Part shown: one piece after another, positions 2,196 through 58,132 of the stretch
Position numbering within the stretch: position 1 is the first letter of the stretch
Layout of the letters: every line of letters starts with the position of its first letter
Source: an uncultured Candidatus Peribacteria bacterium
GTDB lineage: Bacteria > Patescibacteriota > Gracilibacteria > UBA4473
Assembly (NCBI GenBank): GCA_964344775.1
Contig: CAYFOO010000001.1
Coordinates: 13,087-77,086, forward strand
Length of the DNA stretch: 64,000 nucleotides
Reading direction: 5' to 3'
Made by a program: the position numbers and the translations under genes
The notes under the pieces: model-generated
Seen by the model: only the letters and a program-made list of their open reading frames with translations
Database searches by the model: none
What the model was told of the DNA's origin: nothing

Positions 2196-2804
2196 TCATT
2201 CTACATTCCGCATTCCGAGTTCCGCGTTTAAAAAATTTTCCATTTCCCTCGCTGCTTTCCCCCGATGCGACACCGCATTTTTTTCAAATTTCGTCATCGC
2301 CGAATAAACCTGATCTGATCCTTCTGGCACAAAAACCGCCGAAACCGGAATCCCTGGCTCCATCTCTGTAGCCAAATCCTCCAAAATCACTCCCGAAGTA
2401 GTTCCCAACACCACATTTTCAATATTTCGTACGGGATCAAAAAAAGCCATCGCAGAATAAAAGGTTGCTCGACGGTTTTCGACGCCATCCATGAGATTCA
2501 TAAATTTTTCCAGCCATTCTTCATCCGTACCAGAAGGAATCTCTCGCCGCGTCCGGAGTCCAAACTTCTCCGGAAAGGCCTCCAGAATAATACCAGAATC
2601 CTCCCCCAGCGTAGGCACCTGAAATTGGCGACCAAAATACTGAGCTTTCAAAAGTGCATTTGCTTCAAAAGTCATACCATCCTCCTCCACATCTGGAACA
2701 GAGGGAAAATCAGAAAGCAGTAAAAACTCAAAATCATCCCCAAAAAATTCCAGCATTTCTTGAGCCTTCCCTGTGTTTCCAGTAGCGAGAAGTATTTTTT
2801 TCAT
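2196..2804 (-). CDS. rdgB: non-canonical purine NTP pyrophosphatase (RdgB/Ham1 family)
   Basis: N-terminal LLATGNTGKAQEM motif and SHRGKA near the C-terminus. The last ~11 codons (NAELGMRNVE) are encoded by the heptamer array 2197..2231. Confidence 0.85.
   Translation of the reverse strand: MKKILLATGNTGKAQEMLEFFGDDFEFLLLSDFPSVPDVEEDGMTFEANALLKAQYFGRQFQVPTLGEDSGIILEAFPEKFGLRTRREIPSGTDEEWLEKFMNLMDGVENRRATFYSAMAFFDPVRNIENVVLGTTSGVILEDLATEMEPGIPVSAVFVPEGSDQVYSAMTKFEKNAVSHRGKAAREMENFLNAELGMRNVE
2197..2231. repeat. heptamer array CATTCTA CATTCCG CATTCCG AGTTCCG CGTTTAA
   Basis: Same family as 15360..15387, 15812..15839 and 42526..42560. This copy encodes the RdgB C-terminus. Confidence 0.75.
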
Positions 2805-10022: not shown

Positions 10023-10421
10023 CTAAATCTGTTTGTTGTTTGTTGCTTGTTGTTCGTTGATCAAAACTTCAACTTCTTTTTTCAGTTTCTTGAGGTTTTG
10101 CTCCCCAAAAGGAATTCCAATTATCCTCATCTCATCAATCTTTCCACTCTCCCGCATCAGTTTCAAAAAAAATCCCAAATCCAGATCGTGACACGTCGAC
10201 GATCGGGCCAACTCCAAATCCTCAATCCGATCCAAAATCTGAACCTTATCAATTCCCTGCACCACATCCATGATCCAAATTACCCCAGATTCTGAAAGAA
10301 TCTCATTCGGACTTTCTGCTTTCACAAACTCAAAATCCGGATGATTGATTTTGGCCGCTAAATTTTTAGCCACTTCATCACCGGCTACAAATTCGTTCCC
10401 AAAAACAAATATTTTTTGCAT
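10023..10421 (-). CDS. hydrogenase maturation endopeptidase (HycI/HyaD-like)
   Basis: Start moved to MQKIFVFGNEFVAGDE (the GNxxxxD motif). Further blocks are IWIMDVV and STCHDLDLG. The C-terminal NEQQATNNKQI is encoded by the heptamer array 10030..10064. Confidence 0.55.
   Translation of the reverse strand: MQKIFVFGNEFVAGDEVAKNLAAKINHPDFEFVKAESPNEILSESGVIWIMDVVQGIDKVQILDRIEDLELARSSTCHDLDLGFFLKLMRESGKIDEMRIIGIPFGEQNLKKLKKEVEVLINEQQATNNKQI
10030..10064. repeat. heptamer array TGTTTGT TGTTTGT TGCTTGT TGTTCGT TGATCAA
   Basis: In-phase units that encode the C-terminus of the endopeptidase. Confidence 0.7.
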
Positions 10422-10527: not shown

Positions 10528-12759
10528 CCCACGTACAAATTTACCATCACCGGAACAGTTCAGGGCGTCGGATTTCGACCATTTATTCTCCGTGAGGCAA
10601 AAAAAGCAGGGTTGGAAGGATATGTAAAAAATACAGGCATCGGCGTAGAAATCGTGGCCAACGATAAAAATAAAATTGCAAAAATCCTAGAGAATCTACC
10701 CCCTCTGGCCAAGATTGATCAAATTAAGATTCAAGAAATCAAAGATGAAAAATTTAAAGATTTTGTAATTCAAAATTCTTCCCGTACAGACGCCCAATTT
10801 GGGCGTCTCCATAATACAAAAACAAATTTTTCCATCCCCCCCGATATCACCACTTGTGATAAATGCCAAAAAGAATTATTTGATCGGGATGATCGAAGAT
10901 TTCAATATTTTTTCACGAGCTGCACCGACTGCGGTCCCAGATTTTCGATTACAGAGCAATTTCCCTTCGATCGGGAGAATACCACCTTGGAAAAATTCCC
11001 TATGTGCCCAGACTGCGAAAAAGAATACAAAAATCCGGAAGACCGAAGATTCCACGCACAAACTATCGCCTGTGAAAAATGTGGTCCTGTATTGTCCTTG
11101 TACTGTAAAGACACGCCACGGCGTGTCTCCACAGGAAAAAATGCCATAAAAAAAACAATTGATCTTCTCAAATCCGGAGAAATCATCGCCATCAAATCGA
11201 TCGGCGGATTTAGCTTGATCTGCCTGGCCGATGAAAAAACGGTCACAAAATTACGATCCCTCACCCACCGAAAAAACAAGCCTTTTGCCCTGATGGCCAA
11301 AGACATAAATATGATCAAAAATATTGTTCATATTTCTAAGAAAGAACAAGAAATTTTGGAGTCACGAGAGCGGCCAATCGTACTATTGCATCGTAAAGAC
11401 GCCCAAATTGGGCGTCTCAATCACATATCAGAAAACAGCTTCCTCGGATTTTGCCTCCCCTACACTCCCCTGCACCACCTAATTTTTGAGCATCTGGATG
11501 AACCCATCATCTTCACCTCATCCAATCTCCCCGGCATCCCAATTACCACAAAAAAAGAACAACAATTTGTCCCCCATGTCCTGGATTATGACCGGAAGAT
11601 CGCGAACTTTTCGGATGATTCGATCGTAAAAGTAATCGCTGATCATCCCCTCCTCATCCGCCGAAGTCGCGGATTTGTCCCCACAGAAATTCAGGTCCCT
11701 AAAAATTATCAAATATTTGAAGATGATATCCTCGCCGTCGGAGGAGAAATGAAAAACACCTTTTGTCTCAAAAAAGGAAACTCACTACTCCTTTCTCAAC
11801 ACCTAGGAAACACAGCCGGACTCGAGAACTTTGAAAATTTTCGCATCACGCTTGATAAATTTCTGAAATTTACTGGTGCCAAACCAAAGGTAATTCTGTG
11901 CGATAAAAATCCCTCCTTCAATACCCATCAATTTGCTCATGATTTTGCGAAGAAAAATAAGATTCAATGTGTGGAAATTCAACACCACGTGGCACACGTT
12001 TTTTCGACAGCACTCGAACACAATCTGACGAACTTCATCGGAATCGCTGCAGATGGCACCGGCTGGGGAGAGGGTAACAAAGTCTGGGGCGGAGAAGTTT
12101 TTCATAATGATCAGAGAATTGGAAAACTCGAAGATCAAACCCTCATGGGCGGGGACATCGCAAATAAAGAACCAGTCCGGATGCTCATCGGAATTTTATC
12201 CAAATTTTTAGATGAAAAAGAAATCATAAACCTGCTTCCAAATTTTAATGAAAAATTAATTAAAAATTGTATCAAACAAAAGAAAGAAAACTTCAACTGC
12301 ATTGAAAGCTCCAGTTGTGGACGGATCCTTGATTGCATATCTATCCTCCTCGGATTGGCGGATAAAAATGATTACGAAGGGCGATGTGCACAGATGTTAG
12401 AAATAAAAAATGACCTTCCAAAATTTAAAATTAAAAATTTAAAATTAAAAATTAAGGGAAAAGATAATTTAAATATTTTAGAAACTACTCCTCTTTTTCA
12501 ATTTCTCATTGAAAAGCTGGATAAAATCCCAAAAGAAGAGCTCGCACATCTAGCCCAACTCTACCTGGCTGAAGGGCTTCTGAAAATCACCCAAGATCAA
12601 AACCTCCCCATCGTCTGGAGCGGCGGCTGTGCTTACAACTCAATCATAACCAGCTTTTTGATTTCAAAAAATGTACTATTCAACAAAAACATTCCTTCTG
12701 GAGATGGGGGAATTTCTGCCGGACAAATTGCATACTTCCTTTGGAAAAAATTTAACTAA
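10525..12759 (+). CDS. hypF: [NiFe]-hydrogenase maturation carbamoyltransferase HypF
   Basis: Contains an acylphosphatase motif (GTVQGVGFRPF), two CxxC zinc-finger pairs, a YrdC-like block (IAIKSIGGFSL, KNKPFALM) and a Kae1-like C-terminus. The track start (TTG 10612) cuts the acylphosphatase motif. The frame is open from 10501 with no ATG/GTG/TTG, so ATT 10525 is a guess. Confidence 0.85.
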   Translation: MPTYKFTITGTVQGVGFRPFILREAKKAGLEGYVKNTGIGVEIVANDKNKIAKILENLPPLAKIDQIKIQEIKDEKFKDFVIQNSSRTDAQFGRLHNTKTNFSIPPDITTCDKCQKELFDRDDRRFQYFFTSCTDCGPRFSITEQFPFDRENTTLEKFPMCPDCEKEYKNPEDRRFHAQTIACEKCGPVLSLYCKDTPRRVSTGKNAIKKTIDLLKSGEIIAIKSIGGFSLICLADEKTVTKLRSLTHRKNKPFALMAKDINMIKNIVHISKKEQEILESRERPIVLLHRKDAQIGRLNHISENSFLGFCLPYTPLHHLIFEHLDEPIIFTSSNLPGIPITTKKEQQFVPHVLDYDRKIANFSDDSIVKVIADHPLLIRRSRGFVPTEIQVPKNYQIFEDDILAVGGEMKNTFCLKKGNSLLLSQHLGNTAGLENFENFRITLDKFLKFTGAKPKVILCDKNPSFNTHQFAHDFAKKNKIQCVEIQHHVAHVFSTALEHNLTNFIGIAADGTGWGEGNKVWGGEVFHNDQRIGKLEDQTLMGGDIANKEPVRMLIGILSKFLDEKEIINLLPNFNEKLIKNCIKQKKENFNCIESSSCGRILDCISILLGLADKNDYEGRCAQMLEIKNDLPKFKIKNLKLKIKGKDNLNILETTPLFQFLIEKLDKIPKEELAHLAQLYLAEGLLKITQDQNLPIVWSGGCAYNSIITSFLISKNVLFNKNIPSGDGGISAGQIAYFLWKKFN
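10788..10808. repeat. 21-nt palindrome AGACGCCCAATTTGGGCGTCT inside hypF
   Basis: 10+1+10 perfect. Translated as TDAQFGRL. Confidence 0.85.
11109..11128. repeat. 20-nt palindrome AGACACGCCACGGCGTGTCT inside hypF
   Basis: 9-bp arms. Translated as KDTPRRVS. Confidence 0.85.
11397..11417. repeat. 21-nt palindrome AGACGCCCAAATTGGGCGTCT inside hypF
   Basis: Same as 10788..10808 with the central base complemented, i.e. the opposite orientation. Translated as KDAQIGRL. Confidence 0.85.
12424..12458. repeat. heptamer array TTTAAAA TTAAAAA TTTAAAA TTAAAAA TTAAGGG inside hypF
   Basis: Translated as KFKIKNLKLKIKGK. Confidence 0.75.
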
Positions 12760-13332: not shown

Positions 13333-14265
13333 TTATTTTTTACTTTTAGCTTTCGACTTTTTGCCTGTTTCCTCTTTCTTCTTCGTTGTTTTCGCTTTTC
13401 CCTTGTCCTCCGTAGCTTTAGCGGAGGAGGATTCCTTCTTTACTGGTGCTTTCTTTTTTACTGCCTTTTTTTCCTCTTCTGTAGTTTTTTCACTTTTAAC
13501 TTTCGACTTTTGACTTTTGACTTCTTCACTTTCCACTTCTGCCTTTTTCTTGTTACTTGGTGGTGCTTCTGTTCGAAGTAAATTTAATGCTTCAAAAGTA
13601 GCATAAGCGGTATTCAACCTATTTCGTGAACCATGAGATTTAGAAAGCACATTTTTGATCCCTGCTAGGTCCAAAATAGTTCGTACTGATCCTCCTGCGA
13701 TCACCCCCGTACCTTCTGGTGCTGGAATTAAAATTACTTTGGTTGCTTTGAAGTAAGCTTCAATATCGTGAGGAATAGAATCTTCAAAAATTGGAACCGT
13801 CACTAATTTTTTCTTTGCCGCTGCTACAGCTTTTTGGATCCCTACCATCACTTCTGTTGCTTTTCCTACCCCAAGTCCGACTCGTCCTTTTTTGTCTCCA
13901 ATCGCTACCGTCACTTGAAATCGCATTCGTCGTCCTCCCTTCACCACACGAGTCACCCGAGAAATCCGGAGGATACTTTCTTCAAATTCCTTTTTTTCTC
14001 GTTCTCGTCCACCACCTCGACGACCACCACGACCACCTCTCTGACGTTTATCCTTGTGATCCCGGAGGTCTCTTTGATCTGGCTTCCCTTTTTCATCAGC
14101 CTTTTTTTCCTCTTTCTTCTCAGAAGCTTCCCTGTCGGTAGAAGCTGAAGCAGCGGAAGATTCTTCTGCCGATTTTTCAGTGGAAGCATCTTCAGGCTGT
14201 GTGGCCACCTCTGCTGGTGCAGCAGTTCCTTCTTTTTCCGGTGTTGTAGTAGCGTCTTCAGACAT
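13333..14265 (-). CDS. rpsE: 30S ribosomal protein S5 with long N- and C-terminal low-complexity extensions
   Basis: The core (ISRVTRVVKGGRRMRF...GTGVIAGGSVRTILDLAGIKNVLSKSHGS) is flanked by about 95 aa of acidic/RGG sequence and about 85 aa of Lys-rich tail. The tail is encoded by repeat modules. Confidence 0.9.
   Translation of the reverse strand: MSEDATTTPEKEGTAAPAEVATQPEDASTEKSAEESSAASASTDREASEKKEEKKADEKGKPDQRDLRDHKDKRQRGGRGGRRGGGREREKKEFEESILRISRVTRVVKGGRRMRFQVTVAIGDKKGRVGLGVGKATEVMVGIQKAVAAAKKKLVTVPIFEDSIPHDIEAYFKATKVILIPAPEGTGVIAGGSVRTILDLAGIKNVLSKSHGSRNRLNTAYATFEALNLLRTEAPPSNKKKAEVESEEVKSQKSKVKSEKTTEEEKKAVKKKAPVKKESSSAKATEDKGKAKTTKKKEETGKKSKAKSKK
13342..13362. repeat. heptamer array ACTTTTA GCTTTCG ACTTTTT (last codons of rpsE)
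   Basis: Encodes ...KSKAKSKK. Confidence 0.7.
13401..13431. repeat. CCTTGTCCTCCGTAGCTTTAGCGGAGGAGGA module inside the rpsE tail
   Basis: Family CCTGTCCGCCGTAGCCTTGGCGAAGGAGGA (42178..42210, 33288..33320). Translated as SSSAKATEDKG. Confidence 0.7.
13492..13526. repeat. heptamer array ACTTTTA ACTTTCG ACTTTTG ACTTTTG ACTTCTT inside the rpsE tail
   Basis: Encodes VKSQKSKVKS, the identical peptide to the carA insertion. Confidence 0.8.
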
Positions 14266-15300: not shown

Positions 15301-15303
15301 GAT

Positions 15304-15394
15304 TTAGTTATTAGTGGTTAGTTATTAGTGGTTAGTTTTTAGTTCTTAGTTTTTAATTCCGAAATCCGCATTTCGCATTCCGAAATTGAATTAG
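15304..15394. repeat. 13-unit in-phase heptamer array filling the whole rplF-rpsH spacer
   Basis: TTAGTTA TTAGTGG TTAGTTA TTAGTGG TTAGTTT TTAGTTC TTAGTTT TTAATTC CGAAATC CGCATTT CGCATTC CGAAATT GAATTAG. Confidence 0.85.
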
Positions 15395-15765: not shown

Positions 15766-15769
15766 ATTA

Positions 15770-15846
15770 TTAGTTGTTAGAACTTAGAGCTTAGTTATTA
15801 GTTTTTTAATTCCGAAATCCGCATTCCGCGTTCCAAAATCGGATTA
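15770..15846. repeat. 11-unit in-phase heptamer array filling the whole rpsH-rpsN spacer
   Basis: TTAGTTG TTAGAAC TTAGAGC TTAGTTA TTAGTTT TTTAATT CCGAAAT CCGCATT CCGCGTT CCAAAAT CGGATTA. Confidence 0.85.
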
Positions 15847-19871: not shown

Positions 19872-19920
19872 ATTTTCAAATTCGTAATTCGTAATTTGGC
19901 ATTTGTAATTAATTGCTACT
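19872..19920. repeat. heptamer array ATTTTCA AATTCGT AATTCGT AATTTGG CATTTGT AATTAAT TGCTACT
   Basis: Lies between the convergent stops of 18700..19860 and dnaJ. Confidence 0.75.
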
Positions 19921-21092: not shown

Positions 21093-21557
21093 ATGACCAT
21101 TGAACAATCACAACCATTTGATCTGGAAGTATTTAAAGCAGAGTTTGCTCAATTAATGAGAGAATATGCTGAATTGTTTTTTAAAAGATCTCACTCGAAA
21201 ATAATACATGAAGATGAATTTGAAAGAGTCGAACGAAAAATTGAAAATTTTTTTGTCGGTCAAGAAGTCCCTTTGAAACAGGAAGGGAGTTTTTTATTGG
21301 CAGCATTCGAAAAAATTGATCAGGATTTTATGAAATTTTGTTTGGAAGAAATCCCTAGAGGGATGAATCTGTGGGATCATTTAGTTGCTCAAAGAATAAA
21401 AAGAAAAATTGAAGAAGCTACTGCACCTTTAAATGAAGGATTAAAAAAAATTGGAAAGAAATTTGAAAAGACGACCGATATGTTATCAAAAAGAAGGGAA
21501 AATATTAAGGTAATGTTAAATGAAATGGATGATGAAAATCCTACAACTCCCGGATAA
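21093..21557 (+). CDS. hypothetical protein
   Basis: 154-aa helical charged ORF. Its 3' end overlaps the carA 3' end convergently. Confidence 0.5.
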   Translation: MTIEQSQPFDLEVFKAEFAQLMREYAELFFKRSHSKIIHEDEFERVERKIENFFVGQEVPLKQEGSFLLAAFEKIDQDFMKFCLEEIPRGMNLWDHLVAQRIKRKIEEATAPLNEGLKKIGKKFEKTTDMLSKRRENIKVMLNEMDDENPTTPG

Positions 21558-22632
21558 ATTCATCAAAAAGATATGCCGCATCCTCCGGCCCCGCACACGC
21601 CTCCGGATGAAACTGTACGGAAAAGATTGGTTTTCCTTTGTGTCGGATACCTTCAACAGACCCATCATTGAGATTTTTGAACCAAACCTCAAAATCAGGC
21701 GGCAAAGAATCCCCATCCACCTCGTATCCGTGATTTTGCGAAGTAATTAAACACCTTTTTGTACCACTTTTGACTTTTGACTTTTGACTTTTGACTTGAA
21801 TTACCGGCTGATTCACCCCCCGATGTCCGTATTTCATCTTTTTTGTTTTTCCTCCCGCAGCAAGTGAAAGAATCTGATTTCCCAAGCAAATCCCAAAAAT
21901 CGGTAATTCCCTTGTCATCGACTGCCGAGCAATTTCGATGGTCTCCACTACTTTTTCTGGATCTCCTGGCCCATTGGAAATGAAAATGCCATCAATCTTC
22001 TCTCCCAGATCAAAAGGTGGATGATTGTACGGCATTCGTAAAATTCGGATTCCTCGCTGAAGAAAATTTCGTAGAATTCCATTCTTCGCTCCACAATCCA
22101 TAAAAGCAATCGTTTTTCCGGTCGGATTTTCCGGTTCCAGAATTTCCATTCCTTCCGGAGAAACAGAGGGGACAAATCTTCCCCCCAGTTCATCTTCAAA
22201 TTTCACTGGTTTTTTGTCGCCCAATTTACCCAAGATTGTTCCCTTTTCTCGTAGAATTTGTGTTAACTCCCGTGTATCAATCCCAGAAATCGCTGGAATA
22301 CCTTGCTCTTTGAGCCAATCCATAAAACTTTTCACTGCTTCGCAATGAGAGAACTTCAACGATTCTTCGGTTAAAATGACTCCTCGAACCCAGATTTTTT
22401 TACTTTCAAATGTTTGATCTACGTTGTCCTGAAAAGACTTTACTTCCGGCACACCATAGTTCCCAATCAGCGGAAAAGTGAACGTCACGATTTGTCCAAA
22501 ATAGCTCGGATCCGTGAGAGTTTCGAGATATCCGGTCATTCCGGTAGTGAAAACAACCTCCCCTTCGGCTTCGCTCTCTGCTCCGAAAGAGGTACCTTCA
22601 AATGTTTTTCCGTTCGCGAGAAAGAGTTTCAT
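21541..22632 (-). CDS. carA: carbamoyl-phosphate synthase small (glutaminase) subunit, with in-frame repeat insertion
   Basis: Typical CarA blocks (GICLGNQIL, GHRGVNQPV, ITSQNHGYEV, FSVQFHPEA). VKSQKSKVKS is encoded by four exact ACTTTTG units at 21766..21793. No carB is adjacent. Confidence 0.9.
   Translation of the reverse strand: MKLFLANGKTFEGTSFGAESEAEGEVVFTTGMTGYLETLTDPSYFGQIVTFTFPLIGNYGVPEVKSFQDNVDQTFESKKIWVRGVILTEESLKFSHCEAVKSFMDWLKEQGIPAISGIDTRELTQILREKGTILGKLGDKKPVKFEDELGGRFVPSVSPEGMEILEPENPTGKTIAFMDCGAKNGILRNFLQRGIRILRMPYNHPPFDLGEKIDGIFISNGPGDPEKVVETIEIARQSMTRELPIFGICLGNQILSLAAGGKTKKMKYGHRGVNQPVIQVKSQKSKVKSGTKRCLITSQNHGYEVDGDSLPPDFEVWFKNLNDGSVEGIRHKGKPIFSVQFHPEACAGPEDAAYLFDEFIREL
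21766..21798. repeat. (ACTTTTG)x4 exact + ACTTG inside carA
   Basis: Exact tandem units counted directly. Confidence 0.9.
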
Positions 22633-22689: not shown

Positions 22690-22724
22690 TACTGTTCACT
22701 GTTAGTTGCTAGTTGCTCGTTGTA
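22690..22724. repeat. heptamer array TACTGTT CACTGTT AGTTGCT AGTTGCT CGTTGTA
   Basis: Spans the gatA stop codon and its last codons. Confidence 0.75.
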
Positions 22725-33139: not shown

Positions 33140-33174
33140 CCCCCGGCCTTCGGCCGGGGGACACTTTTTCTTTT
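33140..33174 (+). terminator. intrinsic terminator of 32786..33130
   Basis: CCCCCGGCC-TTC-GGCCGGGGG followed by ACACTTTTTCTTTT. Confidence 0.7.
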
Positions 33175-33232
33175 ACAAAAAAAGACGCACCTCTCAGTAC
33201 GCCTTCTTTCTAATTTTTATCGTTCCCCCCCC

Positions 33233-33264
33233 GGCGAGGTTGGGAAACCTCGCCTACGTTTTTT
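33233..33264 (+). terminator. hairpin GGCGAGGTT-GGGA-AACCTCGCC plus T6 (second terminator-like element; member of a repeat pair)
   Basis: 9-bp stem, then TACGTTTTTT. The same 22-mer occurs inverted at 429..450. Confidence 0.5.
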
Positions 33265-33287
33265 AATAATCTAAGTTCTAAGCTCTA

Positions 33288-33320
33288 CCTGTCCGCCGAA
33301 GCTCGTAGAGCGAAGGGGGG
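33288..33320. repeat. CCTGTCCGCCGAAGCTCGTAGAGCGAAGGGGGG module
   Basis: Non-coding copy, downstream of dnaK, of the family that is translated in rpsE and in the NDP-sugar transferase. Confidence 0.65.
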
Positions 33321-33331
33321 AGTTCTACCAA

Positions 33332-41812: not shown

Positions 41813-41917
41813 TATTTGTACGACTGTTCCAATAGATACCTGCTTTCCCCCTACGTAGTTTTGGGCAAAAAATCCCCAAACGGCGGACAGGTCTCAGGCA
41901 TGACAACAGTGATTTTC

Positions 41918-41973
41918 AATTCGTAATTCGTAATTTGTAATTGAAGATTGGTAATTGAATCACTGCTCACTCT
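41918..41973. repeat. heptamer array AATTCGT AATTCGT AATTTGT AATTGAA GATTGGT AATTGAA TCACTGC TCACTCT
   Basis: Runs across the stop and last codons of the NDP-sugar transferase. Confidence 0.8.
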
Positions 41974-43000
41974 CATGCAACCTCGTCCCTCGCCGCACGA
42001 GCTTCCGGTTGAGATCAAGTCCCTCGAAGTCACAACCCTCATCAATCACCGATTGCGAAATAATGCAGTTTTTTAATTTAACATTCGGATAAATGATCGA
42101 ATCCTGAATCCGACAATTTTGGATTTCTGAATCTTCCCCAATAAAAACCTTTCCAGAAAATTTATTCCCTTGATTTTGCCTGTCCGCCGTAGCCTTGGCG
42201 AAGGAGGAAGTTTTAAGTTTTGAGCTTTGAGCTAGTTTTAAATCCTCTTTTTGAAGTTTTCTATGTGCCTCCAGATACGTCTCAAAACTCCCCACATCAA
42301 ACCACTCTCCTCCTACTTTCACGGCTGATAATTTTTTTCCATGAGCTAAAAACTCGGTAAAAACTCCACCGAGAGAATCAGCCTCTTTCTGGGCAAAACT
42401 GTGCAAAATCGGCAATAAATCTTTCCCAATCCCAAAGAATCCAGTCGAAACTAAGTTCGATTTCGGATTCTCCGGCTTCTCCTCAAACCTCTTAATTAAA
42501 AAATCTTTTCTATTTTGATTTTTTAATTCCGCATTTCGCATTCCGAAATCCGAAATCTCCACCACTCCAAACTTCCGTGCTTCATATAAATCCTCCACCT
42601 CTCGCACCGCCACCTTTCCCTCTTTTTCTGAACAAAAAAGTTGATCAATATGTAATTCTGGAAGGAGGTTGTCTCCGGCAATCACCACCAGATTCTCATC
42701 AATAGAAAAATATTTGATCGCCATCGAAAGAGCTCCCACCGCCCCCAGTTTCTCCTGGTCTGAGTGGGCATCCTCACAAAAAATTTCTACATTCTTTCGT
42801 CCTAATTTTTCTAGCTCTTTTTGGAAATCGGCTTCAAATCTTTTGTTTGTAAGCAAAATCACCTCCAGGTCAGCTGGAACCTTCTCGAGAATATGTGTCA
42901 AAATCGTCTGTCCATCGAGAAGCAGGAGCGGCTTCGCTCGGTGCTCAGTCAGCGGCCACAACCGTGTCGCAAATCCGCCAGCTAAAATTAGGACTTTCAT
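41960..43000 (-). CDS. sugar-1-phosphate nucleotidyltransferase with C-terminal left-handed beta-helix, carrying repeat-derived insertions
   Basis: MKVLILAGGFATRLWPLT and an LbH-like C-terminus (IGEDSEIQNCRIQDSIIYPNVKLKNCII). The internal DFGMRNAELKN and KLKTSSFAKATADRQ segments are encoded by repeat modules. Confidence 0.8.
   Translation of the reverse strand: MKVLILAGGFATRLWPLTEHRAKPLLLLDGQTILTHILEKVPADLEVILLTNKRFEADFQKELEKLGRKNVEIFCEDAHSDQEKLGAVGALSMAIKYFSIDENLVVIAGDNLLPELHIDQLFCSEKEGKVAVREVEDLYEARKFGVVEISDFGMRNAELKNQNRKDFLIKRFEEKPENPKSNLVSTGFFGIGKDLLPILHSFAQKEADSLGGVFTEFLAHGKKLSAVKVGGEWFDVGSFETYLEAHRKLQKEDLKLAQSSKLKTSSFAKATADRQNQGNKFSGKVFIGEDSEIQNCRIQDSIIYPNVKLKNCIISQSVIDEGCDFEGLDLNRKLVRRGTRLHESEQ
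42178..42235. repeat. GC module GCCTGTCCGCCGTAGCCTTGGCGAAGGAGGAAG plus heptamers AAGTTTT GAGCTTT GAGCTAG, inside a CDS
   Basis: Translated as KLAQSSKLKTSSFAKATADRQ in the interdomain linker. Confidence 0.75.
42526..42560. repeat. heptamer array ATTCCGC ATTTCGC ATTCCGA AATCCGA AATCTCC inside a CDS
   Basis: Translated as EISDFGMRNAE, in the same frame as the RdgB C-terminus. Confidence 0.8.
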
Positions 43001-43664: not shown

Positions 43665-43673
43665 CTTTTTTTA

Positions 43674-43708
43674 AATTACGAATTACGAATGACAAATTAC
43701 AAATTCTT
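43674..43708. repeat. heptamer array AATTACG AATTACG AATGACA AATTACA AATTCTT
   Basis: At the 3' flank and stop of the four-helix-bundle gene. Confidence 0.8.
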
Positions 43709-54712: not shown

Positions 54713-55948
54713 TTATTCTTTGCACGAAACCAGGTTTGCTTGCCGAGCACAGACGATGTCTTTGTAGAGAAGCGTTTCTTCGAGTTGGGCATTGATCTCT
54801 AGGATAGTTTGAAAGGTGTATTCCAATTTTTTCGCAAAGCCGTCGGTTCTGATCCCAGAGATGTGTTTCGCTCGATCGATGAGGTAGTTTCGATCGTTTC
54901 TCCATTTTTGGTGCCGTGTTTCAAAGTGTCGTTCATGAGGCCGAGCTTGAGTCCATTCTTCGATAGTTCTGGTTTCTCCTGCGGTTTCCTTGACCTTGAT
55001 CCCGGCCATCAGCCATTTGATGGGATCGGACAAAAATTTTGTAGCTTTAAATTTTTCCCAAAATCGTTCTCGTTGGAGATAAAATTTTGGCAAAGGGAGG
55101 AGATCTTCGATCAAATAGTAAAAAGGATAAAAATCATCCGTGTTAATGGTTTTGTGCGATCGGGCGAAGGCTTTTTTGAATTCTTGCGATATTTTGAGCG
55201 GGAGAGGAAGAGGTTCGTCTGCGTGACCGTATTGGACGGAATAGTTTTCTGATCGAACATCTGCCGTGTCCTGTTTCTCCAGTAATTCCCGCGAATTTTT
55301 GAGGAGCGGAGGAATAATTTTATCTTTTCTTTGAATTTCTTCATCTTTGCAGATTCTTTGATTTTGTAGATTTAGCTCCAGGTAGAGTTTTTCGGCTAGT
55401 TCTTTGGCACTGGCCGAATTAAACACCACTGATTTTGAGGTCCGGAGTGGCTGGATAGCTGCTGGGAGAATGTTTATCAACATATCTTCATGAAAAGCAA
55501 AAACAGCCTCGGTTTTTTGCTCGAATTCATCAGAAAAGCAGGCTTCGTGGTCTTGCATGCTTGTTTTTCTTCGAAATTCATCAATCCGTGGAAGGACGTC
55601 CAGATATTTATTTAATGCTGCAGGAAATTCATCTGGAAACGCGGCAAAATATTTATCAATCGTTCGGAGTTTTTGAGAGAGGAGGTAGAATCTTTTGAAT
55701 CGAGGAGAGTATTCGATATCACTGATATCTTTTGTAAGTTCTGTGAAAATTGGAACGGGGACACTGGGACATCTGGCTATTTCTTTGGGCAGTTCCACTT
55801 CCTTCAGGTGTTGCAGCTGGAATTCTGCCTGTGGAGTCAGATCTTCCAGAGTTTTTGGTGGTATGCATTTGGGATTACCCACATTTTCCTCTTCTGCGAA
55901 GGTCAATGCTGGAGTAAAAAGAATGATAAAAATAATCAGTTTTTTCAT
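54713..55948 (-). CDS. secreted hypothetical protein (third gene of a three-gene operon)
   Basis: Signal peptide MKKLIIFIILFTPALTFA. 6 Cys. ATGA overlap with the upstream gene. Confidence 0.6.
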   Translation of the reverse strand: MKKLIIFIILFTPALTFAEEENVGNPKCIPPKTLEDLTPQAEFQLQHLKEVELPKEIARCPSVPVPIFTELTKDISDIEYSPRFKRFYLLSQKLRTIDKYFAAFPDEFPAALNKYLDVLPRIDEFRRKTSMQDHEACFSDEFEQKTEAVFAFHEDMLINILPAAIQPLRTSKSVVFNSASAKELAEKLYLELNLQNQRICKDEEIQRKDKIIPPLLKNSRELLEKQDTADVRSENYSVQYGHADEPLPLPLKISQEFKKAFARSHKTINTDDFYPFYYLIEDLLPLPKFYLQRERFWEKFKATKFLSDPIKWLMAGIKVKETAGETRTIEEWTQARPHERHFETRHQKWRNDRNYLIDRAKHISGIRTDGFAKKLEYTFQTILEINAQLEETLLYKDIVCARQANLVSCKE

Positions 55949-57237
55949 AATTTTTTTGGCTTGTGGGCTAGATCTTTAAAAATTTTCTTCAGCTTCACGA
56001 CCTGATCGTACCAGGCAAAGAAATCATCGTTCCAATAATCAATCACTCGGAGAATGCGGACAAAATACTGCTGTTCCGGTTCCATGGTGGCAGCTTTTTT
56101 GATCGCATCCAGGTGTTGTTCCCAATCTTCTGTTCGCATAATTGTACATTCTTCCATTAGTTCGTCACTGTATTTTTTTGTGAGGTTGTATTTTCCTTTT
56201 CTCGCTTCTTCCAGTCGATTGAGGCAGGAAGTTTCCAGGCGAATTCGATCTTCTAGTCCAGCGAACCTTTTTCCGATTAATTCCCGGTTATTTATTTCTA
56301 CTTCTAGATCAGCTTTTTGGATGGGAGCTTTCAGAATTTTCTGACTGTAGAGATCTCCAATATCCGGGAGGTAGTACCAGCCGGACTGCTGAAAAAGGCG
56401 GGTGTTGTTACATTCTGCCACTTGCGAGAGATCAGCGAGTTTATATTCAAGAACATTTTTCATATTGGCAAAATTTCCTGCAATGAATCCATCCTCTTCA
56501 GAATAATCATTTGGATTGGTGGTGAGCTGACTTTCTGTATTACAGTTGCCTTTGTAGCAGGGGAATTTTTCTTTGAATCCATCCATCCAGGTGGGCCAAT
56601 CTCCGGTTTCTATATCTTCCTCTTCATCCCTTTCTTCATCTTTATTTTCGGTATCCTCTTCTCCCTCATCCTCACCTATTCGAGAACGATATTTCTTCGA
56701 TTTTTCATACACAAATTCTGGTTTCGGTTGATCTTTTTTGTAGGCTTTTTCTCCGAAAATGAGTTCATCAATTTCATCTAGATCGTCGATCAGATCGTAG
56801 GGATATTGATCATCAGCTTTTCCCATTTTTCTGTCCGAGTGGATACTCATGTGATTCAATCGTTCTTTGAGATAATCTTCAAACCACAGCAGCTCCCGTT
56901 CAAATTTCATCACATCTTTTGCCCGAGCAGCCCATTCTTGTTGAGATTGTATGCTCCAATGAATTTGTTCAATTTCTTCTAATTTTTTTTCACCTTCATG
57001 ACTTTGTTCCCATCGTTCTAGTGTTTGGAGTTTTGGGCAGGAGATATTCTTAAAAGTATCTTCTTCTAGGGTGTCAGGGTTATCCCAATTGGCTTTTCGA
57101 TTTTGCACTCGCTTACAGACACTTTCTTCGTGTTCCTGAGTCATGGAATTTGTTTTTTCATAGATTCTTTTGTAGAGATCTTGAAAATCCTTGAGAGCGT
57201 TTGTTTCTACGGGAAAAATAAAAATTCCAATTATCAT
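55945..57237 (-). CDS. secreted hypothetical protein (second gene of operon)
   Basis: Start moved to MIIGIFIFPVETNA. The ORF-track N-terminus is translated from the (GAATTTT)4 array. It contains an acidic stretch and 7 Cys. Confidence 0.55.
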   Translation of the reverse strand: MIIGIFIFPVETNALKDFQDLYKRIYEKTNSMTQEHEESVCKRVQNRKANWDNPDTLEEDTFKNISCPKLQTLERWEQSHEGEKKLEEIEQIHWSIQSQQEWAARAKDVMKFERELLWFEDYLKERLNHMSIHSDRKMGKADDQYPYDLIDDLDEIDELIFGEKAYKKDQPKPEFVYEKSKKYRSRIGEDEGEEDTENKDEERDEEEDIETGDWPTWMDGFKEKFPCYKGNCNTESQLTTNPNDYSEEDGFIAGNFANMKNVLEYKLADLSQVAECNNTRLFQQSGWYYLPDIGDLYSQKILKAPIQKADLEVEINNRELIGKRFAGLEDRIRLETSCLNRLEEARKGKYNLTKKYSDELMEECTIMRTEDWEQHLDAIKKAATMEPEQQYFVRILRVIDYWNDDFFAWYDQVVKLKKIFKDLAHKPKKL

Positions 57238-57265
57238 AATTTCTCGGAAAACTTTCCAAATTTTT

Positions 57266-57293
57266 GAATTTTGAATTTTGAATTTTGAATTTT
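57266..57293. repeat. (GAATTTT)x4 exact
   Basis: Lies between the first and second genes of the secreted-protein operon. Confidence 0.9.
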
Positions 57294-58132
57294 TAATCAT
57301 TGGTGGTGATGAGTTCTTCATAATCCTCTCCGGCATGTTGGTCGCAGAGTTCTGAGGCGGCGTAGTTAAATTTGTCCGGGAATTTGTAGATGGCTTTTCG
57401 GAGGATGGTGCTCATGGCATGTGTTTTTTTGAGAGCCTCCCAGATGGTGGTGAGCCACATGTGAAATCGGTAATTTTGTTCCCATTTTTGATAACGATAG
57501 AGAGTTTCGAAGAGGGCTTTTTTTGATTTTTCTAGTTCAGCTCTGTGCTTTCCTTTATTGCCTCGGTCTGCTTCAAAAAAGCCCACGTTAGTTTTTTCTT
57601 CGAATTGTTTTTCTGCATGGGATTCATCCAGGATCTTCCATTCGATGTATTCTTGGTAGGCACAAAACTCGTTCATCACGGTTTCTGTGACATGACAGGC
57701 AGAATAAAATTTATCAATCGTGGGATTATAGTCTTCTGTGGGGCACATGCTCTCGTATCCGTTGTTGATCTGAGATTTTATCGTCTCCTGCATGTTTTCA
57801 GAGGGTGTGCATTCATCGTTTCTTTCGATGTCTTCGAAGTTGGCCGTGCTGGGAATTTCTTTCCAGATACGGGTAAAGTCCGCATTCATATGATTGATCG
57901 ATTGGGCCATGGCGTCATTGAAGAGGCAGTTGATCTTTTTTTGATATTTTTCCTGTGCTTGAACAAGTGGCTCATCTAGTGAATAACTCAAAGAAGAGTG
58001 GCACAGCTGCTTCTGCGTCATTTCTGCGAAGTTGTCTCGGAGCCCACTGTCTAAAGAAAAAGCTGCAGGAACTTGAAAGATGAATGTTCCGAGCAAAAAT
58101 ATGGAAATGACCCTTTTTTTGTTTTTGTTCAC
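57293..58132 (-). CDS. secreted hypothetical protein (first gene of operon)
   Basis: Signal peptide ...FIFQVPAAFS. 7 Cys. No recognisable domain. Confidence 0.6.
   Translation of the reverse strand: MNKNKKRVISIFLLGTFIFQVPAAFSLDSGLRDNFAEMTQKQLCHSSLSYSLDEPLVQAQEKYQKKINCLFNDAMAQSINHMNADFTRIWKEIPSTANFEDIERNDECTPSENMQETIKSQINNGYESMCPTEDYNPTIDKFYSACHVTETVMNEFCAYQEYIEWKILDESHAEKQFEEKTNVGFFEADRGNKGKHRAELEKSKKALFETLYRYQKWEQNYRFHMWLTTIWEALKKTHAMSTILRKAIYKFPDKFNYAASELCDQHAGEDYEELITTND

Follow-up and report, generated by a model that had tools for sequence, protein, structure and literature searches.

The 64-kb stretch of Candidatus Peribacteria DNA analysed here (the window) carries on its minus strand, at 41960–43000, an intact open reading frame (ORF) of 346 aa for a predicted sugar-1-phosphate nucleotidylyltransferase of the nucleoside diphosphate (NDP)-sugar synthase type, whose translation includes ...KFGVVEISDFGMRNAELKNQNRKDFLIKRFEEKP... 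and ...LKLAQSSKLKTSSFAKATADRQNQGNKFSGKV.... An earlier note, written from the letters of the window by themselves, had pointed to two segments of this protein as repeat-derived in-frame insertions. We compared the gene with its orthologues, modelled the protein and followed the repeat families through the window and beyond. Our preferred reading is that an ordinary, intact Peribacteria NDP-sugar pyrophosphorylase has probably taken up small repeats of its own genome as two in-frame passenger insertions, at places that tolerate changes in length.

The host protein itself is unremarkable for its class. The Pfam family NTP_transferase (PF00483) covers residues 2–251 (E 2.8e-32), with weak matches to the C-terminal left-handed beta-helix. 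The nearest proteins, mostly 312–335 aa long, are named 'NDP-sugar synthase' or 'glucose-1-phosphate thymidylyltransferase' and come from metagenome-assembled genomes (MAGs) of Candidatus Peribacteria, Gracilibacteria and Peregrinibacteria; the solved relatives are UGPase (8x7s), GMPPB (7d72), ST0452 (2ggo) and RmlA-type enzymes. We aligned 29 orthologues and took both variable sites from 80 orthologous loci (labels L001–L257 denote fetched loci, and P0004 and P0006 are proteins in the orthologue alignment). The motifs LAGGFATRLWPLT, of the G-G-x-(G/A)-T-R-L type, and FEEKP, of the (F/V)-E-K-P type, are invariant in the alignment, and the window enzyme retains all of the invariant columns. Together with a nucleotidyltransferase fold like that of GMPP, RmlA and UGPase structures and a C-terminal hexapeptide-repeat domain, these motifs mark the protein as a putative member of the sugar-1-phosphate nucleotidylyltransferase class, an assignment defined by fold and motifs and not by substrate. 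Within a species-representative genome set the top match is 75% identical (L003). An AlphaFold2 model of the enzyme reached a mean predicted local distance difference test score (pLDDT) of 78.6, with domain cores at 90 or above.

The segment nearer the C terminus (site 2) is flanked by the conserved sequences WFDVGSF before it and GKVF after it. In the AlphaFold2 model it lies between the last nucleotidyltransferase helix (residues 239–249) and the first beta-helix strand (279–282), and residues 256–278 have pLDDT values below 50 and are predicted to be disordered. The ground-state length, found in 25 of 31 orthologues, is 29 aa; L003 has 33 aa and the window 43 aa, an excess of 14 aa. Read along the gene strand, the DNA consists of a heptamer tract (42209–42233, minus strand; GCTCAAA GCTCAAA ACTTAAA ACT, encoding AQSSKLKT), of which 42219–42233 was scored as 2.1 perfect copies by Tandem Repeats Finder (TRF), and then of a 30-nt hairpin module set within this tract (42179–42208, minus strand; TCCTCC, TTCGCCAAGGCTAC, GGCGGA and CAGG, encoding SSFAKATADR). 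The translated GC module with heptamers that the earlier note had described at 42178–42235 is thus what lies there. The L003 and L004 orthologues have heptamers of the types TCAAAAT and CAAAAAT in the same place, and the gap of L003 at site 2 corresponds to exactly the 30 nt of the module, with well-aligned flanks.

The other segment (site 1) is a loop of 23 aa, residues 149–171 (ISDFGMRNAELKNQNRKDFLIKR; 42488–42556, minus strand), between the conserved sequences FGVVE and FEEKP. Its DNA has a period of 7 throughout, with an offset-7 match of 0.58 against 0.19–0.39 at other offsets. The core array at 42526–42553 (minus strand; TCGGATT TCGGAAT GCGAAAT GCGGAAT, encoding SDFGMRNAE), which the earlier note had reported as translated heptamers at 42526–42560, spans 28 nt of a tract of about 45–69 nt and is made of four units, all different. 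This core shares 22 identical bases with the intergenic DNA at 15365–15386, the order of the variant units included, and the 3' junction GGAATTAAAAA is common to the site-1 array and to both intergenic copies described below. The loop has a ground state of 8 aa in 17 of 42 orthologues, so that the window exceeds it by 15 aa. In L003 it is 21 aa long with a nearly identical peptide, ISDFGTRNAEL, and the array sits at the same codons with the same number of units despite 25% nucleotide divergence; the site-1 insertion is older than the split from this closest known relative.

The earlier note had put both insertions in or near the linker to the beta-helix. This holds for site 2, whereas site 1 is placed by the AlphaFold2 model at the tip of a beta-hairpin inside the nucleotidyltransferase domain, between strands 145–149 and 166–174. 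Model confidence is low here as well (mean pLDDT 55 for block 151–160, and below 50 for residues 159–163). Both segments fall in low-confidence surface regions of variable length, in keeping with the surface or linker position for which a structure prediction had been suggested. Orthologues without the segments exist, and the DNA families to which the segments belong have non-coding copies, which together identify the segments as repeat-derived; an orthologue from a repeat-free genome with homologous segments at the same positions was not found. This confirmed that both are lineage-specific in-frame insertions of repeat DNA.

The two sites are hot spots, at which L007, L012, L016, L019, L011 and L045 carry independent repeat-made insertions. 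Site 1 holds about ten ATCAAAN-like units in L007 (offset-7 match 0.66), GC-rich hairpins, for example CCCCCCTTTGTAAGGGGGG and TGCCCGAAGGGCA, with the translation ...PLCKGGCPKGRGG..., in L012, and a duplicated GAGTTCGAACTC palindrome in L016 and L019. Site 2 of L011 (about 10700–10900) has a 43-aa insertion of AAGTYCGRACTT palindromes and other repeats. The small palindromes AAGTCCGGACTT, AAGTTCGAACTT, GAGTTCGAACTC and AAAATCCCGCGAAATTTC occur in frame at these loops in at least two copies each (site 2 of L011, site 1 of L016 and L019). In two further proteins, P0004 and P0006, site 1 is extended by long segments with the peptides PFTKGDDP and PFHKGGDPKGRG, which at the peptide level are consistent with an element like that of L012. 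Hairpins of the form CCCCC...GGGGG, similar to those of L012, are also present in spacers of the window, for example at 33150–33250.

The 30-nt module proved to be a sharply bounded unit with relatives far outside the window. A degenerate 24-nt pattern matched at least 120 metagenome contigs, with GC contents from 31% to 71% among the matches listed, and 55 IMG/VR viral contigs. Position-wise composition gave the consensus TCCNCC, TTCGCYAARGCTWC, GGNGGR and CARG, with borders of conservation exactly 30 nt apart. The stem is 6 bp long and 94% paired, even though the search pattern left out its 5' arm. The arms vary while the loop is conserved, and the arms covary: we counted 85 double-sided changes against 33 in shuffles, none of 500 shuffles reached the observed number, and the signal collapsed in slid controls. 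Exact protein look-ups placed three of the module contigs, in Candidatus Acidiferrales and in Vicinamibacterales (both Acidobacteriota) and in the Planctomycetes bacterium DG_58. In 1.35 Mb of Peribacteria DNA, 0.4 copies would be expected, and approximate matching yielded 10. A covariance model (R1) built from 120 copies recovered three copies in the window (42177–42210, 13400–13433 and 33286–33322), scored the one at site 2 at 53 bits (E 1e-12), and added 8 from Peribacteria loci totalling 1.26 Mb.

One of the other two window copies is coding as well. Ribosomal protein S5 (13333–14265, minus strand) runs on for about 75 aa past its Pfam domains, which end at residue 232 of 310, and this C-terminal extension contains a module copy in frame (13402–13431, minus strand; SSSAKATEDK, 48.5 bits) and a heptamer array of the AAGTCAA type (13487–13547, VKSQKSKVKS). 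The third copy (33286–33322, minus strand) is intergenic and diverged, with a 17-nt loop (17 bits, E 0.011); it is situated about 10 nt past a stop codon, with TAGARCT heptamers after it.

The association of module and heptamer array extends to other loci. When removals of 24–36 nt were tested at L110, L159 and L218, only the removal of 30 nt restored an in-phase tandem array, and the inner module copies inserted at L158 and L193 measured 30 nt by hand count on the sequences. Period-7 arrays were present in 7 of 243 module flanks and in none of 886 control segments. No target-site duplication was seen in the comparison of the window with L003 or at L110 and L159. Module copies often stand at the tips of longer inverted repeats (L142, L173) or are nested (L158, L193). 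At L193 (about 930–1030) the arms are interleaved and not simply nested, with complementarity between the outer 5' arm (CCGCC) and the inner 3' arm (GGCGG) and between the inner 5' arm (CCTCC) and the outer 3' arm (GGAGG). Loop positions 5 and 8 of the module are linked (C..G in 124 copies, T..A in 52 and other combinations in 5 of 181) in every GC class (L083–L257); they are too close together for pairing, and both are synonymous third codon positions in the FAKAT frame.

Searches for a partner or a precedent of the module gave negative results. All-against-all BLAST of 2,923 ORFs from 175 loci revealed no gene linked to it in cis, the top family occurring at 6 of the 175 loci and the recurring families being mostly viral. 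BLAST of the module gave only partial, chance-level matches against 72,556 plasmids of cultured bacteria and none against 50,697 phage records. No Rfam family covers either repeat, in the window and 20 module loci at the gathering threshold and in one locus at permissive E-values. The literature searched gives no description of the module, of its peptides or of such repeats in Peribacteria or other members of the candidate phyla radiation (CPR), which is absence of evidence only, and the Peribacteria genome paper makes no mention of such repeats.

Heptamer arrays are a feature of the whole window. TRF found 25 arrays of period 7 and 8 of period 14 in the 64 kb, against 1.8 and 0.5 in order-2 Markov simulations, an enrichment of about 14-fold. 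Periods 8 and 10 were at expectation, period 11 at about twice expectation, and periods 9 and 12, multiples of three and subject to codon periodicity, were also raised. Exact runs numbered 5 at period 7 and 5 at period 14, against 0.02 in shuffles, and none at most other periods. Sixteen of 35 arrays lie within the non-coding 11% of the window. Most of the arrays have units unrelated to one another. For the unit family of site 1, the window holds 21 pattern matches against 8.4 expected, in four in-register clusters, and none of 100 shuffles reached 21; all the 2.48 Mb of DNA that we fetched contain 9 arrays of this family, of which this window alone has 4. Enrichment of periods 7 and 14 was observed in some Peribacteria loci, among them L001, L002, L005, L036, L039, L050 and L056, and not in all.

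Besides site 1, the family has three copies in the window, each where the earlier note had seen it. One, at 2198–2225 (minus strand), provides the last nine codons and the stop codon of RdgB/Ham1 (AELGMRNVE and stop), beyond the Ham1 profile, which stops at residue 190 of 202. The other two are intergenic and had been noted near 15360–15387 and 15812–15839; they lie at 15356–15383 between rpsH (S8) and rplF (L6), where a hairpin of −12.6 kcal/mol is predicted, and at 15809–15836 between rpsN (S14) and rpsH, in a spacer with the same two-part layout (both minus strand). On the gene strand, each of the spacers (15301–15390 and 15766–15843) has a (T/G)CGGAAT-type array a few bases past the stop codon and then in-phase AACTAAN heptamers, which end 2–5 nt before the next ATG (rpsH and rplF). 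No Shine-Dalgarno sequence is evident in the two spacers.

The sense strand of three of the four window copies, and of the L003 copy, is predicted to fold with energies of −10 to −14.6 kcal/mol, and the antisense strands fold much more weakly. For the site-1 array the predicted sense hairpin has −14.6 kcal/mol (z −4.4 to −5.3; antisense −5.4) and needs G.U pairs; z-scores are clearly low only for this copy and for the one at 15350–15392. A universal hairpin for heptamer arrays is unsupported, since the RdgB copy and a copy in the orthologue L040 do not fold. We also rejected a terminator role for the intergenic arrays: the sense hairpin is followed by an A-rich and not a U-rich stretch, and on the other strand the T-run precedes the hairpin.

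Other heptamer tracts enter coding regions of the window. CarA (21541–22632, minus strand) contains a perfect (AAGTCAA)x4.6 tract at 21766–21797, encoding QVKSQKSKVKS, which forms a 9-aa insertion relative to human CPS1 in the glutamine amidotransferase domain, directly before the conserved ITSQNHGY; a slip of one unit in this tract would frameshift the gene. HypF has a small in-frame heptamer tract (12420–12453, PKFKIKNLKLKI), and further in-frame or ORF-end heptamer and 14-mer tracts occur at 10030–10059, 22703–22722 and 57262–57297. Such tracts make up C-terminal tails, namely INEQQATNNKQI followed by a stop codon and, in a GatA-like amidase, QRATSN followed by a stop codon. An (ATTCAAA)x5 array stands at the start of the ORF at 55945–57336, with units of the same family as the site-2 tract of L003. 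The spacer 3' of the host gene (41871–41957, no strand assigned) combines a fragment of the module tail, ACGGCGGACAGG, at 41880–41891 on the plus strand (a weak covariance match of 9.3 bits) with an AATTCGT array at 41918–41957, a family seen again at 19879–19896 and 43673–43705. A CCCCAA...TTGGGG hairpin is also found between 41763 and 41959.

The earlier note had taken the repeated use of one reading frame as a sign of selection against frames with stop codons. For the heptamers this explanation had to be given up. Six-frame translation of the array core shows no stop codon in any frame, and since 7 leaves a remainder of 1 on division by three, a heptad peptide read in one frame recurs in the other two frames of that strand, displaced by a unit. 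The occurrence of GMRN in both RdgB and the host enzyme thus follows from sequence and strand alone, with no need for selection. For the module the idea fared better. Of 39 copies in contigs below 45% GC, among the matches listed, 30 fall within an open frame that spans 100 codons or more, and 18 of these 30 use the frame S-x-F-A-K-A-T-x-D-K, as do the two coding copies of the window and the L003 copy; five of the six frames of the module are free of stop codons. All four arrays of the site-1 family and all three module copies in the window are on the sense strand of the local genes. The host reading frame survives because the module, at 30 nt, adds a whole number of codons and is nearly stop-free, and because stop-free heptamer units are open in all frames.

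The earlier note had also likened this behaviour to that of Rickettsia palindromic elements (RPEs), which are hairpin-forming repeats of about 150 bp with in-frame coding copies in unrelated housekeeping proteins at fold-compatible positions (PMC10969869). In outcome the likeness stands. The window repeats are small and dispersed and, in the module at least, hairpin-forming, they have in-frame copies in the host enzyme, RdgB and S5 and non-coding copies at 15356–15383, 15809–15836 and 33286–33322, and the module has a preferred frame. The elements themselves are not RPEs, because their sizes do not match and one of them is a tandem array instead of a palindromic unit: RPEs are known from Rickettsia and encode a longer conserved peptide of tens of residues, whereas here we find a module of 30 nt (10 aa) and tandem heptamers of roughly 30–60 nt with a site-1 core of 28 nt. 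Hairpin formation gives a mixed picture, the module having a covarying 6-bp stem and the heptamer array a hairpin only by way of G.U pairs and only in three of the four window copies. In addition, the module is common to at least three phyla and to viral contigs. It is by description that the window repeats are set apart from RPEs.

The heptamer arrays come closer to the heptanucleotide repeats of other bacteria, for which polymerase slippage was proposed by Mrazek in 2007 in work on long simple-sequence repeats, as summarised in PMC4679880, and of which the TAACTGA repeats of Beggiatoaceae, cyanobacteria and Bacteroidetes are an example (MacGregor 2015, PMC4679880). Shared traits are the period of 7, copy numbers of about 2–6, head-to-tail runs in excess of chance, a mostly intergenic location, often close upstream of start codons, the presence in ribosomal-protein operons, and the overlap of some repeats with ORF ends or peripheral ORF parts, giving a 7-aa repeat. 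The window differs in having many unrelated units and not one dominant heptamer, in belonging to the Peribacteria (CPR), for which no such report was found in the literature searched, and in carrying tracts in internal loops of conserved enzymes (the host enzyme and CarA).

Repetitive extragenic palindromic sequences (REPs) and REPINs, which RAYT transposases (IS200-like Y1 enzymes) mobilise, are short, imperfect, dispersed palindromes of 20–40 nt, located mostly between co-directional genes (PMC3116915). The module resembles them in being short, dispersed and imperfectly palindromic. However, its loop is conserved and its stem variable, its copies sit freely in ORFs, and no protein family recurs beside it (at most 6 of 175 loci, in module neighbourhoods only); nor is it species-specific, and its spread across phyla is unlike that of REPs. 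The mobile GC clusters of yeast mitochondria are GC-rich palindromes of about 30–40 nt that have spread through AT-rich DNA and may lie in frame within a protein gene (var1). They differ from the module in being organellar and in their sequence and target rules, and the likeness is one of description only. The small dispersed repeats (SDRs) SDR4–6 of Nostoc punctiforme reportedly are hairpins of 21–27 nt with a conserved core, occur in heterocystous cyanobacteria, are nested and lie within heptamer tandem repeats, and are said to be mobile with no known transposase. As far as this description goes, the module would resemble the Nostoc repeats most, sharing a conserved core with covarying arms, nesting, association with heptamer arrays and precise presence or absence; the comparison is with the description of the SDRs and not with their sequence, and the module differs in being found in Patescibacteria, Acidobacteriota and Planctomycetota.

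We return to the reading of the host gene as an intact enzyme gene with two passenger insertions, of which the insertion status, the membership in repeat families, the exact 30-nt unit and the positions of the loops are shown. Site 1 is a tract of period 7 with a core from a dispersed family of heptamer arrays, and under this reading site 2 would have formed in two steps: a heptamer tract arose, of which L003 has a shorter form, and a discrete 30-nt hairpin element then entered the tract without a target-site duplication. The tracts would grow by replication slippage of 7 nt, only changes by multiples of three would survive inside genes, the added peptides would be neutral passengers and not functional parts of the enzyme, and the module would be moved by a factor acting in trans. 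More tentatively, and at somewhat less than an even chance, the 30-nt unit may be an ultra-small mobile element, noncoding for its own movement, that has spread across Patescibacteria, Acidobacteriota, Planctomycetota and viral genomes, often entering heptamer arrays or hairpin tips without target-site duplication and colonising genes in one frame, and serving, together with heptamer slippage, as a general source of new linkers and tails in proteins of small-genome bacteria, S5 included.

Several observations weigh against the passenger reading, at least in its simplest form. In L045, a protein 37% identical to the window enzyme, site 1 is a perfect (TCGGAAA)x4 array (502–529), and a perfect array in the same loop therefore favours local slippage over the import of a ready-made array. 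None of the orthologues stands near enough to reveal an empty site 1, which leaves the exact borders of this insertion undefined. The RdgB copy, as stated above, does not fold into a hairpin. Finally, the site-1 array is 89% identical in nucleotides between the window and L003, where the gene as a whole is 75% identical; 11 of its 12 amino acids are the same, and third positions agree in 10 of 12 cases against 54% (p about 0.04, uncorrected). On sequence grounds, this better conservation hints at constraint rather than pure neutrality. With an uncorrected p of about 0.04, the conservation of the site-1 DNA as evidence of function was left unsupported.

The strongest rival, which we consider possible but rather unlikely, builds on the first of these observations. 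It holds that the site-1 tract and the heptamer part of site 2 arose by local 7-nt slippage from a seed (GGAAA, codons of a Gly-Lys or Gly-Glu beta-turn) with no import, and that their likeness to intergenic copies reflects unit bias or gene conversion. The array of L045 fits this view, as does L040, of the same 37–38% identical group, which has (TTCGGAT)x3 at 10338–10358 in a different position of the orthologue (GDNYFGFRISDF). The unrelated units of most window arrays are what local amplification predicts, L003 and L004 differ in their site-2 units, and in repeat-rich bacterial genomes no long simple-sequence repeats are as common as those with a unit of 7 nt, with slippage as the proposed cause (Mrazek 2007, to the extent summarised in PMC4679880). 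However, slippage in place does not readily account for the 22 bases shared with 15365–15386 down to the order of the variant units, for the junction GGAATTAAAAA common to both intergenic copies, or for the concentration of 4 of the 9 family arrays of 2.48 Mb in this one window, and the ground-state site-1 loops of other orthologues have no common TCGGAA seed.

It is improbable, in our assessment, that the segments are selected functional additions, whether as an interaction or regulatory surface or, at site 1, as a messenger RNA hairpin with a regulatory or stabilising role. Such a role would agree with the conservation of the site-1 array in L003, with the predicted stability of its sense RNA over the antisense, and with the sense orientation of all seven copies of the two families in the window. 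Yet most orthologues do without both segments and other lineages have unrelated sequences in their place, the same DNA families are non-coding elsewhere or form C-terminal tails of unrelated proteins, model confidence is low with site 2 predicted to be disordered, and the conservation signal is weak, with p about 0.04 not corrected for multiple windows.

Far less credible still is a role of the in-gene tracts as contingency loci, in which slips of one unit would act as an on-off switch for a surface-glycan pathway (phase variation). Since 7 cannot be divided by three, a slip by one unit shifts the reading frame; the enzyme makes an activated sugar, a class that is often phase-variable; and CarA in the same window has a perfect tract of 4.6 copies. 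The host gene, however, has no long perfect tract with a unit number varying between close strains, its tracts being short and imperfect (four differing units at site 1, 2.1 perfect copies at site 2), the unit number at site 1 being the same in the window and in L003 at 25% nucleotide divergence, and no orthologue among the 80 loci being frameshifted. That assembly or binning joined repeat DNA into the gene by error is the least credible of all: although the sequence comes from a metagenome assembly and short repeats are difficult for assemblers, the site-1 array is at the same codons in the L003 MAG, a representative genome of another species (L001/L003), frame and invariant residues are intact, and the module occurs with covarying stems in contigs of many independent projects.

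The reading of the host gene as an ordinary enzyme gene with two passenger insertions of the genome's own small repeats has consequences beyond this gene, and its wider value lies in a heptamer phenomenon that is genome-wide in a CPR lineage and in a 30-nt module that crosses phyla. If it is correct, repeats much smaller than any transposon would keep remodelling even compact CPR genomes and would become loops, linkers and tails of conserved enzymes and ribosomal proteins. For CPR proteins, repeat segments of this kind inflate and distort sequence alignments as well as domain limits and predicted structures; in the DNA they can be spotted and masked. Because the period of the arrays is strictly 7 nt, the long-standing proposal of a polymerase slippage register of 7 nt can be put to the test in a new clade. 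The mechanistic question raised by the module is which agent could move a 30-nt hairpin and leave no target-site duplication; the module is at the same time a sharp, searchable marker, whose presence or absence could date insertions and trace its spread between phyla and viruses.

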